Shown here one piece after another: positions 3,417-16,302 of a DNA stretch of 64,000 nucleotides; within the stretch, counting starts at the first letter, position 1, and each line of letters begins with the position of its first letter. The stretch lies in sequence record MT446415.1. One strand, given 5' to 3'. Both the position numbers and the translations under genes were made by a program. The stretch comes from Escherichia virus TH44. The notes beneath the pieces are model-generated. The model saw only the letters and a program-made list of their open reading frames with translations, searched no databases and had not been told where the DNA came from.

Positions 3417-3445
3417 TGTACATAGTATGGGGATAGACGTATAAT
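3417..3445 (+). promoter_or_regulatory. early-type promoter with class-A leader
   Basis: TGTACA-17-TATAAT; -10 flanked by inverted repeat agtatgggga/ttcccatact. Confidence 0.6.
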
Positions 3446-3481: not shown

Positions 3482-4006
3482 ATGGAAGCCAAATCAATCT
3501 TTAATCTGATTAATTACAATAATGGTAATTTTAAATCAGAAGCACAAAGTAAGTTCTTTAATGATGTTGCTTGTGCAGGCGAGATTACAGTATCAGGTGG
3601 TCAGACTTATAAAAACGCCTGGAACTGGATTGTGACTGTTGATTCAGTTGGTATTGTTGATGTGTATAAAAACACCAACAAAAACCGCTCTTTGTTCTGG
3701 TCAAGAGAGACTAATGCAGAATATCAAGCGGCAAGAGCAAAGAAAAATATGCCTACTGAATCTGATGTACAAAACATCAAATCAGATATTCAATATTATG
3801 ATGGTCTGATTGCTGAACAACAAGCGGTGCTTGATAAGTTCAATGAAATCAAGGCGTGTAAAGAGATTCCTGAATTCATGAGGGAATCAGTTAATGAACA
3901 ATACAATCTCACTTCAGAGCGTATTGAAACCTATACCAAACAAAGAGCAGAGCGCCAGGTACTCCTTCAGAAGTTTGAAGAGCGTTTAAAGACGGTTCTC
4001 GCATAA
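3482..4006 (+). CDS. hypothetical protein with C-terminal coiled-coil
   Basis: 174 aa; C-terminal ~70 aa heptad-like helical segment. Confidence 0.6.
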   Translation: MEAKSIFNLINYNNGNFKSEAQSKFFNDVACAGEITVSGGQTYKNAWNWIVTVDSVGIVDVYKNTNKNRSLFWSRETNAEYQAARAKKNMPTESDVQNIKSDIQYYDGLIAEQQAVLDKFNEIKACKEIPEFMRESVNEQYNLTSERIETYTKQRAERQVLLQKFEERLKTVLA

Positions 4007-4069
4007 ACGCTTTATACCAAGGATGGTATAATGGTTCTGACCTTTGATTAATCTATTGAGGAAATTATT

Positions 4070-4918
4070 ATGTCACAAGCAATTAATGAAATTCGTTCTG
4101 AAGTTAAAAACGCTGTTAAATTCACAGGACGTATTCCAAGCACTAAAGATGTGGTTTTAAATGTTCTGTATATGATGTGGAATAAGTTCAATGTTTGTAC
4201 TAATTCTGCTGAATTCACTAAAATCTTTGAAAAGACCAAAGGTCTTCTTACATTAGAAGACCGAGTCATGAAATCTCTTCATCGTTCAGGTATGTTGTCT
4301 CGTGCTAATGCCAAAATTATTCTTAAAAAATATAACAAAGGCTATGACCTTTATGGTCGTGCGATTAGCACCATGACGTTTGATGAAGTGGTTAAAGACC
4401 TTTGGAAGAACCAACGTCGTTTACTGGCGCTTGGTGCGCGTCTTGCGAGTGGTCAAGATAAACAAATGACCTTTAAAACCAATAATTCTTTAGATTATAA
4501 ACTATTTAATGTTATTAAAGGTCAAAATGAAGGCGAATACAGTATTTCTTCTTTTAGTGGATGTCAATACGAAAACTGGAAATTCCATCTTCGTTTGGCG
4601 TTGTCTGTACTGGAATGCCACGGTGTTCTTACCTTTTATGATGTTCAAACTGGAGGCGTCCAGCGTATTAAATTATGTCAAATTAAAGACCAAGTTGAAG
4701 CCAGCCCTTCAGAACAAGCTCCTAAAATGGAACCTGTTCCAGTGCGAAGCAATGAAAAATATTCAGAGCAAATTGAGCTTTTCACTAAACAGATTGAAGA
4801 ACTTAACATCACCATCCAGCAACAAGATGATGAAATTTTCCGCCTGACAGGGTTGAACAGCGCAGCGAAAGCTGAACGTCAGAAACTGATGAACGTTATT
4901 GAATTGCTTAAGGATTAA
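4070..4918 (+). CDS. hypothetical protein with C-terminal coiled-coil
   Basis: 282 aa; globular N-terminal region, C-terminal amphipathic helix ending LLKD. Confidence 0.6.
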   Translation: MSQAINEIRSEVKNAVKFTGRIPSTKDVVLNVLYMMWNKFNVCTNSAEFTKIFEKTKGLLTLEDRVMKSLHRSGMLSRANAKIILKKYNKGYDLYGRAISTMTFDEVVKDLWKNQRRLLALGARLASGQDKQMTFKTNNSLDYKLFNVIKGQNEGEYSISSFSGCQYENWKFHLRLALSVLECHGVLTFYDVQTGGVQRIKLCQIKDQVEASPSEQAPKMEPVPVRSNEKYSEQIELFTKQIEELNITIQQQDDEIFRLTGLNSAAKAERQKLMNVIELLKD

Positions 4919-5002
4919 TAATGGAATGGCTTGCTGTTCTTGGTTATGTAATCATCGCCACAGGTATTCTGTGGCTGATATTCTCAAATATTGTAGGTTA
5001 AT

Positions 5003-5218
5003 ATGGAAATAGTAGGTTTTATTCTCCTTTACTTTGTGCTAGGATTCATAACGACCATTATCATTCATAAATCGGGTGATTGGAATCCAATCGAAATTGA
5101 ATCAAGCTATGACGCAGTATTCATTACACTAGTATGGCCTCTGCTTTGGTTTGTTTGGGCAATTATGATGGTGTTTTGGCCTATTGCTAAATTCTATGAA
5201 AAATTATTTGGACTATGA
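5003..5218 (+). CDS. small membrane protein
   Basis: 71 aa, two hydrophobic helices. Confidence 0.4.
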   Translation: MEIVGFILLYFVLGFITTIIIHKSGDWNPIEIESSYDAVFITLVWPLLWFVWAIMMVFWPIAKFYEKLFGL

Positions 5219-5219
5219 T

Positions 5220-6104
5220 ATGAAAATTAAAACTCGCGCTGAATATGCTAGTAGTTATGGACCATATGACGGTCGTGTGACTCGTCTTATCGCAATGAAT
5301 TCTTTGGTTAACTTTGGCAAAATCAAATCAGGTTCTGCTACCCAGGGGTATGGTCAACGTATTGTAAGAATTAACTCTCTGAATGATTACTGCCGTCGCC
5401 CGGCGTTTTTGTTTGGTGCCACGGTTCGTAAGAGTATCAAGGAAATCCTGGCTGCTGGATTTCGTATTCGCAAAGCTCCGGTTAACATCAAGAACTATAA
5501 TTTTAACTCTGACAACTTGATTATCAATATCAATTATGATGGTGTACAGATTAAGTTCAAACCAACCACTAAGGGTGATGTTGCTCTTTGTGATACCTTT
5601 AAAGAGGTTATGGGTATTGCTCTGTTTTATATGCGTCATGCCGTTGAAGCATACACGTTTGAAGAAGATACAAATTATATCCATCAAACAGAAAAATTCC
5701 TTAAAACCGTAACTATCGATATTAAACTGACAAAGGAATATCTTTTGTCTTATGCACCTTATCAAGAGAAAAAGGAACCAGAAATGGCGGAACGTATCCC
5801 TACTGCGACATATAACCCATCAGTTACAGGTCAGTTTAAATCTTACGACCAGGCTAAAATTTCACCGCTGGACGTTAAAAATATGTATCAATGGAAAATC
5901 CAGCCAAACAGCTCTCTTGAAATCTTTAACCCACCAATGAAGCCTATTGAGAGCTATCATGCTGATGCTATCCAGGAATCAGTCAACCGCTTAAATGGTC
6001 TGATTGAAGATGAGAAAAAGGGTATCCAGGATGTTCTGAATCGCATCAAGAACATGGAAAAACAACGCAATAAATTGCAAGCTGCAATCAAAGCATTAAA
6101 ATAA
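5220..6104 (+). CDS. hypothetical protein with C-terminal coiled-coil
   Basis: 294 aa; ATG overlaps upstream stop (TGATATG); C-terminal helix ending KALK. Confidence 0.6.
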   Translation: MKIKTRAEYASSYGPYDGRVTRLIAMNSLVNFGKIKSGSATQGYGQRIVRINSLNDYCRRPAFLFGATVRKSIKEILAAGFRIRKAPVNIKNYNFNSDNLIININYDGVQIKFKPTTKGDVALCDTFKEVMGIALFYMRHAVEAYTFEEDTNYIHQTEKFLKTVTIDIKLTKEYLLSYAPYQEKKEPEMAERIPTATYNPSVTGQFKSYDQAKISPLDVKNMYQWKIQPNSSLEIFNPPMKPIESYHADAIQESVNRLNGLIEDEKKGIQDVLNRIKNMEKQRNKLQAAIKALK

Positions 6105-6105
6105 T

Positions 6106-6135
6106 GTTTACTTCCAAGGATGGAGGGAGTATAAT
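6106..6135 (+). promoter_or_regulatory. promoter (GTTTAC ... CAAGGATG ... TATAAT)
   Basis: GTTTAC -35-like, TATAAT -10; 'CAAGGATG' spacer element recurs at ~4017, ~13052 and ~17995. Confidence 0.5.
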
Positions 6136-6162
6136 GAATTCCTACTTTATGAGGAGAACACT

Positions 6163-7152
6163 ATGACACGTAACGAATATATCCAGGCCTTTAACTCAAC
6201 TATCGACACAAAAGTAAAACCATTAATAGGTGAATCGGCTATCCTTTTAATTATCAATTACTGGTTAAATCAGATTGACTCGACGATTGTTGCATCTGGT
6301 CGCTTCAAGAAAGACATTGCAACTATTGCGAGTCGTGCTGGTAACGATGATATCAAGAAAACTTTTAAAAGTTCCCGAGTCCTGGCATACCTGGTTAATA
6401 AAGACCTTCTTAATAAGTTTGGTGTTGAATCCAGACGTGGTAAAGGTACAATTGGATATCATTGGTTTGGTGATGTTGAAAAATACTACCTTGATAAACA
6501 AGGCTATACTGTTTCTGAATTCGCACATTGCTGGGCTCGTGAATTCAGAGATAACAAAATGTCTATCATAAAATCAGCGACAAAATTGATGGATGGCGAT
6601 TATCGCACTATCTGTCATTTGGCAGAGCACATGGTCAAGGTTAAAGAGTCTGGTAAAAACCAGGTAATTATTACAGTTAATCATGAGTTCTTTACTCCAG
6701 TGGCTACTCCAGAAAATGTCAAAAAGTATTTTGATGCTGCGAGCACGCTTACTTCACAGATGCAGTGTGCCCTTAACTATATGCGCACTGTTGAAAAAAT
6801 TAAAGTAGACCCTATCACCAGTACTCGTGGTTGGAAAGGTTGGAAAATTGTGGTGACATTGCGTGAAGTTAAATGCGCAAAACAACCAACTGATGCAGAA
6901 ATTTATAAAAAGAAAAGTGAGGAAATTATGAATGCACCGCAAGAAACCACCCTTGAAGACCTGATTGATAATCTGAACAATGAGCCAGTGAAACAAAAAG
7001 CGCCTGAAATTATTGCTCTGGAAATGGCGTATAATAAAGCTCTTGCTGTTAATAAAAAGGCAACTGAAGATTATACAAAAGCCAAGCGACTTTGGGAAGA
7101 ATCAACTAATCGTCTGGATAAACTGGAACAGGCTCTGGAGCTGCTGAAATGA
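6163..7152 (+). CDS. hypothetical protein with C-terminal coiled-coil
   Basis: 329 aa; C-terminal helix ending ELLK. Confidence 0.6.
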   Translation: MTRNEYIQAFNSTIDTKVKPLIGESAILLIINYWLNQIDSTIVASGRFKKDIATIASRAGNDDIKKTFKSSRVLAYLVNKDLLNKFGVESRRGKGTIGYHWFGDVEKYYLDKQGYTVSEFAHCWAREFRDNKMSIIKSATKLMDGDYRTICHLAEHMVKVKESGKNQVIITVNHEFFTPVATPENVKKYFDAASTLTSQMQCALNYMRTVEKIKVDPITSTRGWKGWKIVVTLREVKCAKQPTDAEIYKKKSEEIMNAPQETTLEDLIDNLNNEPVKQKAPEIIALEMAYNKALAVNKKATEDYTKAKRLWEESTNRLDKLEQALELLK

Positions 7153-7463
7153 AACAACGTTTAGCTGAAGATATTGCTTCATCATCTAATACCGGTTTAT
7201 TGGAATTTATTAAAGCCGAGGATGTTGAAGCTGAATTGGTTGGTAAGATTCATGGCTGTGATGATTATAGCCAAGATATTCCCGATTGGAATGCTATTAT
7301 TAAAATTGTCGAACGTCGTGAAAAAGCTTCTAAGAACGTTCCGAACTGTCCTATGTGTGGAACTGAACAGGTCCAGTTGGTTCAATGGCGGCATAATCCG
7401 CTTCAGTATAAATGTCGCATGTGTAAACACAAATTTGAGCGAGACGAAAATGGCAAAGCGTAA
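7149..7463 (+). CDS. zinc-ribbon protein
   Basis: 104 aa; C-terminal CPMC...CRMC pair. Confidence 0.5.
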
Positions 7464-7695
7464 AGAATATGTTGAGACCGCCGAAAGGGTGGTCCGCGAA
7501 CTTGCTCTGGCTTATTATAAAGAACATGGTAAATTCCCGGATAGTTATTCGGTATTGAAATCTGCTTTAACTCGTTCGTATAATAATATCCTTACTGAAG
7601 TGCATGATATCAGAAATGCACACCTTAAAGAAACTGGAACAGAGCTTGACCGCTCTGAAGTATTCAAACAAGTATTAGGAATTCAAGATGTTTAA
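7450..7695 (+). CDS. hypothetical protein
   Basis: 81 aa, ATG in frame with track ORF 7174..7695. Confidence 0.45.
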
Positions 7696-7951
7696 AATTT
7701 ATGGTTACGATTCAAACATTCATCGTTGCGTTTTCTGCGATAATGCAAAACGTTTACTTGACGTTAAAAAACAACCTTATGAGTTCATCAATGTTATGCC
7801 GGAAAAAGGTGTGTTTGATGATGAGAAGATTGCTCAACTCCTGTCTGCACTTGGTCGTGAATCTCAAATTGGTTTGACCATGCCACAGGTATTTGCCCCT
7901 GATGGAAGTCATATTGGCGGCTTTGACCAACTGCGAGCATATTTCAAATGA
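7688..7951 (+). CDS. nrdC: thioredoxin/glutaredoxin NrdC
   Basis: 87 aa; strongly resembles T4 NrdC as recalled (MFK.YGYDSN...C..CDNAKRLL...[18 protein letters not shown]). Confidence 0.9.
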
Positions 7952-16103: not shown

Positions 16104-16302
16104 ACATGATTTTCATATTGGCGATGGCTGGTTCGGTAATGTAGAATGGGACGTGGATGGTTCTTGGTATACCGGAACTATGTATGTCACTTCTGAATAT
16201 TCTGAAGGTGTTTCATGGGCCATGGAACTTGACGACGTGTTTGCTTCTTCCGAAGAAATGCTAGAATATGCTGAACAAACAATTCGTGGGAACAATACAT
16301 GA
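16078..16302 (+). CDS. hypothetical acidic protein
   Basis: 74 aa ORF. Confidence 0.45.
   Translation: MLIMMKMYKHDFHIGDGWFGNVEWDVDGSWYTGTMYVTSEYSEGVSWAMELDDVFASSEEMLEYAEQTIRGNNT

Follow-up and report, generated by a model that had tools for sequence, protein, structure and literature searches.

The closest described relatives of the genes discussed here lie in the early accessory block of phage T4. There, nrdC.5, designated an early gene by Srikant et al., restores phage plating on cells carrying the SIR2 defence protein Dsr1 (PMC9391042), and two further genes of the same block, nrdC.1 and gp49.2, inhibit Septu (bioRxiv 10.1101/2025.11.20.689424) and OLD (PMC13096335), respectively. Dsr1 is reported to sense the major capsid protein via a tetratricopeptide repeat (TPR) sensor (PMC12803255). 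A related case is DSAD1, which PMC10981675 and PMC11087589 describe as a phage inhibitor of DSR2, a SIR2-type NAD-depleting defence protein. T4 NrdC.5 shows the corresponding phenotype against Dsr1 and is in this respect a functional analogue of DSAD1; the two defence proteins differ in what they sense, which for DSR2 is the tail tube. Here, we analyzed 64,000 nucleotides of Escherichia virus TH44 (MT446415.1; this whole stretch is referred to as the window), in which four open reading frames (ORFs) at positions 3482 to 7152 had been predicted to carry a shared coiled-coil tail on unrelated-looking heads. We find that they are orthologs of T4 nrdC.8, nrdC.6, nrdC.5, and nrdC.4 and that the last three, like nrdC.3 in T4, arose by tandem duplication of one gene and have since diverged. 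That these genes are T4 ORFs, one of them with a published anti-defence role, was already known; joining NrdC.3, NrdC.4, NrdC.5, and NrdC.6 into one superfamily with a conserved coiled-coil tail, and the expansion of this family from one to four tandem copies in coliphages, is new here.

The region is a portion of the T4-type early accessory block, nrdC.11 to nrdC, of a Gaprivervirus-like coliphage. Over 3.8 kb, its DNA is 96% identical to that of Escherichia phages TH41 and UPEC01 and 89 to 95% identical to that of the Gaprivervirus phages VR20/25/26, RZ, and SP18. The counterparts in Shigella phage SP18 are annotated as nrdC.8, nrdC.6, an unnamed split gene, and nrdC.4, followed by nrdC.2, nrdC.1, and nrdC, and the T4 reference order (nrdC.10,.9,.8,.7,.6,.5,.4,.3,.2,.1, nrdC) is collinear with the window genes, among which nrdC.3, nrdC.7, and nrdC.10 are missing. 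All four ORFs are on the plus strand, 5' of nrdC (7688 to 7951). BLASTP against the T4 translations identified the 174-amino-acid (aa) ORF as NrdC.8 (67% identity over the full length; E = 3e-89), the 282-aa ORF as NrdC.6 (49% over 198 aa; E = 4e-52), the 294-aa ORF as NrdC.5 (28%; E = 4e-26), and the 329-aa ORF as NrdC.4 (49%; E = 5e-111; residues 1 to 329 aligned with 1 to 333). We are highly confident of this orthology and of the paralogy within the superfamily. The original prediction had given the sizes and positions of the ORFs correctly, as well as their endings (...TVLA, ...LLKD, ...ALK, and ...LLK), while its statement that none matches a nameable T4 protein was mistaken. Its description of four consecutive ORFs is right in that they lie in a row, except that ORFs of 26 and 71 aa are located between the second and the third.

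Family searches agree with these assignments. The NrdC.8 ORF matches phrog_2274 (E = 6e-99), and Pfam PF26901 is recorded for a protein 99% identical to it. NrdC.6 matches phrog_2257 (E = 4e-118) and belongs to Pfam PF26899 (Phage_T4_Y05B) through the precomputed match of a protein, P0044, that is 100% identical to the window ORF; this Pfam family is newer than the local Pfam copy used, in which a scan of the ORF gave no match. NrdC.5 matches Pfam PF23882 at E = 1.7e-118 (396 bits, with a gathering threshold of 30) over profile positions 10 to 307 of 307, and NrdC.4, directly 5' of nrdC.2 as expected of its T4 orthogroup, matches phrog_1435 (E = 2e-139). NrdC.8, NrdC.6, and NrdC.4 are thus direct orthologs of the T4 proteins at 49 to 67% identity, in the same gene order and with the same lengths, and they differ in that the tail of the T4 reference nrdC.6 is out of frame while that in the window is intact. 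As far as can be told from sequence, NrdC.5 resembles its T4 counterpart in being a full-length DUF7235 protein at the same locus position, with the same plan of head, linker, and coiled coil and in the same early region, but it is more diverged (about 27% identity in the head and 42% in the tail) and is preceded by a 71-aa membrane ORF that has no equivalent in T4.

The relationship of the heads is visible only with profiles and bridging sequences and not with plain BLASTP, in which no pair of the four window proteins scored below E = 0.04, and the Pfam, PHROG, and precomputed matches that we obtained put NrdC.5, NrdC.6, and NrdC.4 in separate families. The N-terminal 211 aa of the window NrdC.4 also match T4 NrdC.3 (BLASTP E = 3.6e-6). 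With ortholog alignments drawn from eleven loci and compared by hhalign, the NrdC.3 and NrdC.4 families were joined at 97.4% probability (E = 1e-11), NrdC.4 matched NrdC.5 at P = 3e-4, and NrdC.3 matched the NrdC.5 tail at P = 4e-4, against P values of at least 0.09 for the control families NrdC.8 and NrdC.9/10/11. The bridging sequences came from an HMMER search with the NrdC.6 profile, which returned only 16 proteins from 1.84 billion representatives. Three of the 16, of 288 to 345 aa, have their closest phage relatives in other T4-like genera (one, P0156, was traced to a T4-like contig). Combined with the proteins of phages PEi20, IME523, and PM2, these single-copy relatives match NrdC.6 at 98% probability (E = 7e-14) and NrdC.5 at 97.6% (E = 3e-12), with matches spanning about 210 to 220 columns up to the C terminus, and they independently match Pfam DUF7235 (E = 4e-7). 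A merged NrdC.3 and NrdC.4 profile aligned with a profile of NrdC.5, NrdC.6, and the single-copy relatives at 97.2% (E = 3.3e-11) over 224 columns ending at K329, while the controls NrdC.8,.9,.10, and.11 gave P values of 0.26 to 0.65.

If an NrdC.3-6 superfamily is defined by a collinear core plus tail, then NrdC.6, NrdC.5, and NrdC.4 belong to it at E values of 7e-14, 3e-12, and 3e-11, respectively, and their heads, which had been thought unrelated, align collinearly with each other and with that of T4 NrdC.3 over about 220 columns of core and tail. A hidden Markov model (HMM) of the superfamily detected three proteins and no others in the window; in a Mosigvirus locus that had been left out of its construction, it again detected three. 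Structure comparison points the same way: the AlphaFold2 (AF2) models of NrdC.5 and NrdC.6, predicted from alignments, match the same phage PM2 protein in Foldseek (E = 2e-5 and 4e-7), the NrdC.5 model also matches an NrdC.6-family protein of phage Sf25, and both models have a common plan of core, linker, and C-terminal helix. The superfamily plan consists of a variable N-terminal part, a conserved core, a proline-rich disordered linker, and a C-terminal helix of 50 to 55 aa that ends in a shared motif, roughly [RN]xxKLxxA[IL]xxLK. In the core, for which the secondary structure was taken from the NrdC.5 and NrdC.6 models, a short helix ending in FG is followed by a long helix with an (A)RL..G..R motif and then by beta-beta-alpha-beta-beta. 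The NrdC.6 model (mean predicted local distance difference test [pLDDT] score of 78.8) has a helical N-domain at residues 1 to 125, a strand pair at 146 to 161, a helix at 170 to 183, a second strand pair at 188 to 203, a disordered segment at 208 to 228, and C-terminal helices at 228 to 258 and 264 to 281. That of NrdC.5 (mean pLDDT of 61.8) has an alpha/beta head at 1 to 178, a disordered linker at 179 to 242, and a single helix at 243 to 293.

We did not find NrdC.3-6 described as paralogs in the literature, nor a solved structure or functional annotation for these families or for NrdC.8. A protein search for homologs of the families returned only relatives of about 42% identity or more, one fragment excepted, and a contig search with NrdC.4 returned only three near-identical loci. 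PDB sequence searches gave nothing but a weak Smc coiled-coil match, and NCBIfam gave no match.

The tails are real helical, heptad-patterned C-terminal segments. We scored 87 non-overlapping window ORFs with an ad hoc heptad scorer that combines core and surface propensities in 28-residue windows over seven registers, and the four ORFs ranked 2, 3, 4, and 8 (z = 3.1 to 4.7); by our own arithmetic, the chance of four adjacent genes all falling within the top 8 is about 3e-3. A 560-aa ORF at 16299 is also among the high scorers. In each of the four, the high-scoring run ends at the last residue (NrdC.8, 135 to 174; NrdC.6, 224 to 282; NrdC.5, 245 to 294; NrdC.4, 282 to 329), and the predicted long amphipathic helices were thereby found as heptad-patterned segments of 40 to 59 aa, the helix itself being confirmed by AF2 for NrdC.5 and NrdC.6. 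Weak Pfam and PDB coiled-coil matches of the NrdC.5 tail are to Sec3_CC, Laminin_II, and Smc. In the NrdC.5 tail, the 'a' positions are A, V, I, I, I, R, and I and the 'd' positions I, L, E, V, M, L, and L; in the NrdC.6 tail, 'a' is mostly Ile and 'd' mostly Leu. For the two tails together, 'a' is mostly Ile or Val and 'd' mostly Leu, and 'a' and 'd' are the most conserved positions. Ile or Val at 'a' with Leu at 'd' points to a parallel dimer, and the core residues of NrdC.5 and NrdC.6 suggest this state. The tails resemble classical parallel dimeric coiled coils of the leucine-zipper type in their heptad periodicity over six to eight heptads, in their beta-branched 'a' and Leu 'd' residues, and in the buried Asn or Arg at single 'a' positions of NrdC.5 and NrdC.6. 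They differ from this type in a Gly-containing break at 259 to 263 of NrdC.6, an Ala/Ser-rich 'd' layer in NrdC.4, and invariant residues on all faces, and the oligomer state is read here from sequence.

Whether the tails are homologous or only alike in pattern was judged with profiles. Pairwise similarity between tails was marginal per pair against shuffles that preserve the hydrophobic pattern (P = 0.02 to 0.3), and we therefore relied on leave-one-family-out HMMs built from tails only and searched against 696 ORF segments of the window. The HMM built without NrdC.5 recovered the NrdC.5 tail (E = 2.9e-8), the one built without NrdC.6 recovered the NrdC.6 tail (E = 3.5e-6), and no other ORF among the 696 segments was found. 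By these searches, the tails of NrdC.6 and NrdC.5 are a specific homologous module, and this part of the predicted sharing stands. Within orthogroups, the tails were more conserved than the heads in seven of eight clade comparisons; for NrdC.4, the between-clade identities of tail and head were 0.60 versus 0.51 and 0.77 versus 0.44. The ratio of nonsynonymous to synonymous substitution rates (dN/dS) was 0.10 to 0.17 in tails and 0.24 to 0.25 in heads. For whole genes, it was 0.22 to 0.24 in nrdC.4/5/6 versus 0.07 to 0.09 in the neighbors nrdC.11/9/8, so that the former evolve about three times faster, all under purifying selection.

Copy number gives the history of the array. The more distant T4-like phages have one copy directly 5' of nrdC.2, as seen in the Kanagawavirus phages PEi20 and IME523, in the Mosugukvirus phage PM2, and in a metagenomic contig (L011). 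Three copies are present in Gapriver-, Dhaka-, and Mosigvirus and four in Tequatrovirus, always beside nrdC.2. Since head and tail homology is collinear, the shared tail comes from tandem duplication and was inherited, not acquired; it is explained by duplication with occasional recombination and not by a cassette placed on foreign heads. An example of such recombination is found in Salmonella phage Manna (L007, 5131 to 6168), where an in-frame chimera joins an NrdC.6 head (residues 1 to 258; 93% identical to T4) to an NrdC.4 tail (residues 263 to 345; 96% identical to T4) at a DDEI/CDEI microhomology, with nrdC.5 and the head of nrdC.4 deleted. The tail module can thus be exchanged in nature.

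The first alternative is that the resemblance is generic, ordinary amphipathic C-terminal helices having neither a common origin nor a common role. For NrdC.8, this is quite probably correct. Its heptad score of 0.61 (rank 8 of 87) is borderline, with z = 3.1 against whole-protein shuffles and 2.0 against tail shuffles, and its heptads are weak outside the last two. Its C-anchored similarity to the other tails is negative, it is silent against every family profile and tail HMM (hhalign P = 0.13 to 0.9 per family and 0.26 against the merged profile), and it is absent from the full-length HMM matches. On these comparisons, nrdC.8 appears to encode an unrelated small protein with a helical C terminus that only resembles the tails of NrdC.4, NrdC.5, and NrdC.6, and the claim that all four share a module fails for it (P of at least 0.1). 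For NrdC.6, NrdC.5, and NrdC.4, the same explanation is contradicted by the profile, HMM, and structure evidence.

It is also conceivable, although unlikely, that the tails are a common docking tag, binding one shared host or phage partner such as the adjacent membrane protein, or that they zip the paralogs together as hetero-oligomers. The greater conservation of tails than of heads would fit such a role, as would the outward-facing heptad positions that fall within invariant blocks and the terminal motif, which is in the same C-terminal register (the best ungapped alignment has offset 0 in five of six pairs). The Manna chimera shows an NrdC.4 tail tolerated on an NrdC.6 head in a sequenced isolate, and the membrane protein of about 70 aa is conserved beside a family member in five lineages. 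However, the tails of paralogs in the same genome are only about 24% identical by our own count, and the invariant blocks differ by paralog (IQDVLNRIKNME, DDEIFRL, and WEES.NRLD), which is the pattern expected of insulated paralogs; we disfavor a common tag or hetero-oligomer for these two reasons. In addition, T4 and Mosigvirus keep the family without the 70-aa gene, and the module is not common to NrdC.8.

A mobile C-terminal module, spread as a cassette by recombination onto unrelated heads in the manner of polymorphic effectors, is very improbable. The Manna fusion with its DDEI/CDEI junction could be taken as such an event, as could an internal duplication in the Sf25 NrdC.6 and a protein from an ENA contig (P0035) in which an unrelated N-terminal half precedes an NrdC.5 C-terminal half. 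However, in every pair of families, the homology continues well N-terminal to the tail and includes the core, and the tail is found on no other ORF of the 64-kb window. The Manna event is a deletion between neighboring paralogs, and P0035, found on a metagenome contig of 1.9 kb, is possibly an assembly chimera. Of the 16 NrdC.6-profile matches, P0160, an internally repetitive protein of 732 aa, is matched over only about 40 residues (E = 1e-4); among the others examined, which did not include several short fragments, none has a foreign head. The comparison with polymorphic toxins and effectors, which the original prediction had raised, also fails on architecture: the constant part is C-terminal here, whereas theirs is N-terminal with a variable C-terminal toxin. 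No toxin or enzyme domain was found in Pfam, NCBIfam, or PHROGs, and the neighbors are other early ORFs, although no search was aimed at an immunity gene. Finally, that these are packaged virion or internal proteins with assembly coiled coils is barely credible, because although coiled coils are common in structural proteins, our analyses gave this no support, the genes lie in an early region with sigma-70 or T4 early- or middle-type promoter-like sites and not late promoters, nrdC.5 is called an early gene by Srikant et al., the T4 nrdC.8 mRNA is a substrate of RegB, and loss or fusion of these genes is tolerated, as in the Manna deletion, the deletions in T4 evolved clones, and the nrdC.5 of SP18, which is split.

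The explanation that we favor, and consider likely overall, is a duplicated family with a target-binding head on an oligomerizing stalk. The proteins would be made before replication, early- or middle-type promoter-like sites and GGAG Shine-Dalgarno sequences preceding the genes, and would act in an accessory capacity, probably in counter-defence. Recognition of a host target, as T4 NrdC.5 may achieve with Dsr1, would fall to the fast-evolving head and N-terminal part, while the conserved tail would join at least two chains in a parallel coiled-coil stalk, probably a dimer. Such a stalk could provide avidity and a suitable geometry against oligomeric host proteins, and with its own tail sequence each paralog would pair mainly with itself. 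These are early accessory genes in a counter-defence-rich locus, where T4 evolved clones tolerate deletions (PMC9391042). For the self-oligomerizing stalk taken separately, we lean only slightly toward it, and a counter-defence role for all members is evenly balanced.

Several points weigh against this explanation. The NrdC.4 tail was missed by the tail-only HMM built without NrdC.3 and NrdC.4, so a tail-only alignment bears out the homology of the NrdC.5 and NrdC.6 tails and not that of all four; the NrdC.4 tail is linked to the others through the full-length profile alignment, a positive but weak C-anchored similarity to the NrdC.3/5/6 tails (P = 0.02 to 0.08 per pair), and the shared ending. 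Errors in the alignments could inflate the merged-profile scores, but comparisons made without merging point the same way (E = 2e-6 and 1.4e-6). The heptad scoring that was positive to the last residue came from a home-made scorer, neither COILS nor MARCOIL, and AF2 was run on monomers only, with pLDDT values of 63 to 79 in the tails. Many Ala and Ser residues occupy the 'd' positions of the NrdC.4 tail. Long invariant stretches, in blocks of 7 to 12 residues, span every face of the helix, and such invariance is no less compatible with a specific partner or with intramolecular packing than with a simple self-zipper. Anti-Dsr1 activity of the window NrdC.5 cannot be assumed either, because it is 28% identical to the T4 protein that was assayed.

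The features of the locus are listed in Table 1. The candidate promoters were read from sequence and consensus scans, and their roles are putative. The site 5' of nrdC.6 was judged against the T4 middle-promoter consensus, and GTTTAC, 5' of nrdC.4, is the T4 early -35 consensus.

Table 1. Genes, predicted protein segments, and candidate regulatory sites of the nrdC.8-nrdC.4 region (window positions unless a locus is given)
Feature	Position	Strand	Remarks
Promoter-like site 5' of nrdC.8	3417..3445	+	TGTACA-17-TATAAT, then GGAG Shine-Dalgarno; consensus scan and sequence; putative promoter
nrdC.8 ortholog, 174 aa	3482..4006	+	Small, highly conserved protein outside the NrdC.3-6 superfamily
NrdC.8 C-terminal amphipathic helix, residues 135-174	3884..4003	+	Canonical heptads: last two or so
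MotA-box-like middle-promoter candidate 5' of nrdC.6	4008..4032	+	CGCTTTA, 12 nt, TATAAT; putative
nrdC.6 ortholog, 282 aa	4070..4918	+	Superfamily member
NrdC.6 coiled-coil tail, residues 224-282	4739..4915	+	DDEIFRL invariant; ends ...ERQKLMNVIELLKD
Hydrophobic mini-ORF, 26 aa (MEWLAVLGYVIIATGILWLIFSNIVG)	4921..5001	+	Between nrdC.6 and the 71-aa ORF; predicted from sequence
Predicted two-transmembrane (TM) membrane protein, 71 aa	5003..5218	+	Stop codon 1 nt before the nrdC.5 ATG; phrog_7899, E = 3e-32
nrdC.5 ortholog, 294 aa from ATG	5220..6104	+	Frame opens at TTG 5184; Pfam DUF7235
NrdC.5 coiled-coil tail, residues 243-294	5946..6101	+	12-residue block IQDVLNRIKNME invariant; ends ...QRNKLQAAIKALK
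T4 early-promoter-like site 5' of nrdC.4	6106..6135	+	GTTTAC-17-TATAAT, then GGAG Shine-Dalgarno; putative function
nrdC.4 ortholog, 329 aa	6163..7152	+	Superfamily member, paralog of T4 NrdC.3; stop overlaps the nrdC.2 start (ATGA 7149-7152)
NrdC.4 C-terminal helix/coiled coil, residues 282-329	7006..7149	+	Rather diverged from the NrdC.5 and NrdC.6 tails
Homologs of the ~70-aa membrane protein	L011 7718-7930; L013 5560-5769; L014 4324-4763; L015 4574-4783		

The GGAG in front of nrdC.8 has a known counterpart in T4, where RegB, which acts on early transcripts, cuts the nrdC.8 mRNA at its GGAG (PMC1702504). A strong terminator-like hairpin at 2790 to 2809 (an 8-bp stem with five G-C pairs, followed by a T-run) lies about 195 nt 3' of nrdC.11 (1585 to 2595). 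In RZ, C6, and PEi20, nrdC.11 is followed by an extra minus-strand ORF of about 250 aa that is missing from the window, and a counterpart of the 26-aa mini-ORF is annotated in phage vB_EcoM_RZ. At the other end, nrdC.2 is translationally coupled to the superfamily member 5' of it in every genus examined, and the NrdC.2 ortholog (7149 to 7463) has a C-terminal four-Cys zinc-ribbon signature with weak Pfam zinc-ribbon matches.

The membrane protein of about 70 aa with two TM segments lies directly 5' of a superfamily member in Gapriver-, Dhaka-, Kanagawa-, and Mosugukvirus and in contig L011, with two copies in PM2 and none in T4 or Mosigvirus; pairwise E values among these proteins are 1e-3 to 1e-12, computed without composition correction. 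The pairing suggests a functional link with the superfamily. Where the coliphages hold nrdC.8 and nrdC.6, the single-copy phages have a conserved protein of about 256 aa (L011, 6301 to 7071; L013, 4790 to 5560; L014, 3542 to 4327; L015, 3382 to 4152), and the copy compared, that of L011, has no detectable similarity to NrdC.8 or the superfamily (P of at least 0.1). A link between NrdC.8 and a 142-aa ORF at the equivalent position in contig L011 was weak (P = 0.011) and was dropped.

Individual genomes carry further changes in these genes. The T4 reference nrdC.6 (L003, NC_000866, 10067 to 10894, minus strand) has a 1-nt deletion (GAGCTG-AT, versus GAGCTGAAT in KNP5) that shifts the frame before the tail, and the full tail (ISIQQYDDEIFRLSGLSSKAKSEREKLIKIVDLLKS) is preserved in the other frame. 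The intact 296-aa version stands for 940 database sequences, and the tail is intact in the window and in most T4-type phages; the T4 deletion is either a mutation of the laboratory strain or a sequencing error. In SP18, nrdC.5 (L001, 5712 to 6616) is broken into two ORFs of 170 aa and 106 to 125 aa and is either a pseudogene or the product of a sequencing frameshift. The NrdC.6 of Shigella phage Sf25 (P0132, 378 aa) has an internal tandem duplication of about 80 residues (IRAHSTDYVNMG...QIEEL repeated) just before the tail. P0035 is a 336-aa protein on a contig of 1,873 nt and could be a real fusion.

The annotation of these genes in databases is misleading. Many GenBank records label nrdC.x ORFs 'thioredoxin', labels that derive from the gene names alone, and one paper classes nrdC.8 among the nucleotide reductases by name only (PMC13275509). 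The nrdC.x-labelled proteins had no thioredoxin or reductase family match in Pfam, PHROGs, or NCBIfam, and as a practical correction such labels should not stand. The label 'inhibitor of host transcription' on the NrdC.6 homolog of phage ESCO10 (OM386655) was likewise rejected, as the product labels in the stretch examined misfit the genes; the gene at the nrdC position, for example, is named dihydrofolate reductase.

In conclusion, the analysis nominates nrdC.3, nrdC.4, and nrdC.6 as paralogs of a gene for an anti-Dsr1 protein and hence as candidate inhibitors of related defence sensors, and it singles out the tail as the part to mutate first. A more far-reaching and doubtful reading is that the NrdC.3-6 array supplies a diversifying set of inhibitors or decoys that target one class of host sensors. 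Candidate targets would be the TPR sensor family of Dsr1, Avs7, and related proteins, with each head tuned to a sensor variant and with the dimeric stalk, in some phages together with the adjacent 70-aa membrane protein, providing a common means of engagement or sequestration. If this were true, nrdC.3, nrdC.4, and nrdC.6 would be undiscovered anti-defence genes, and the copy number of the family, from one to four, would track the defence repertoire of the host range.

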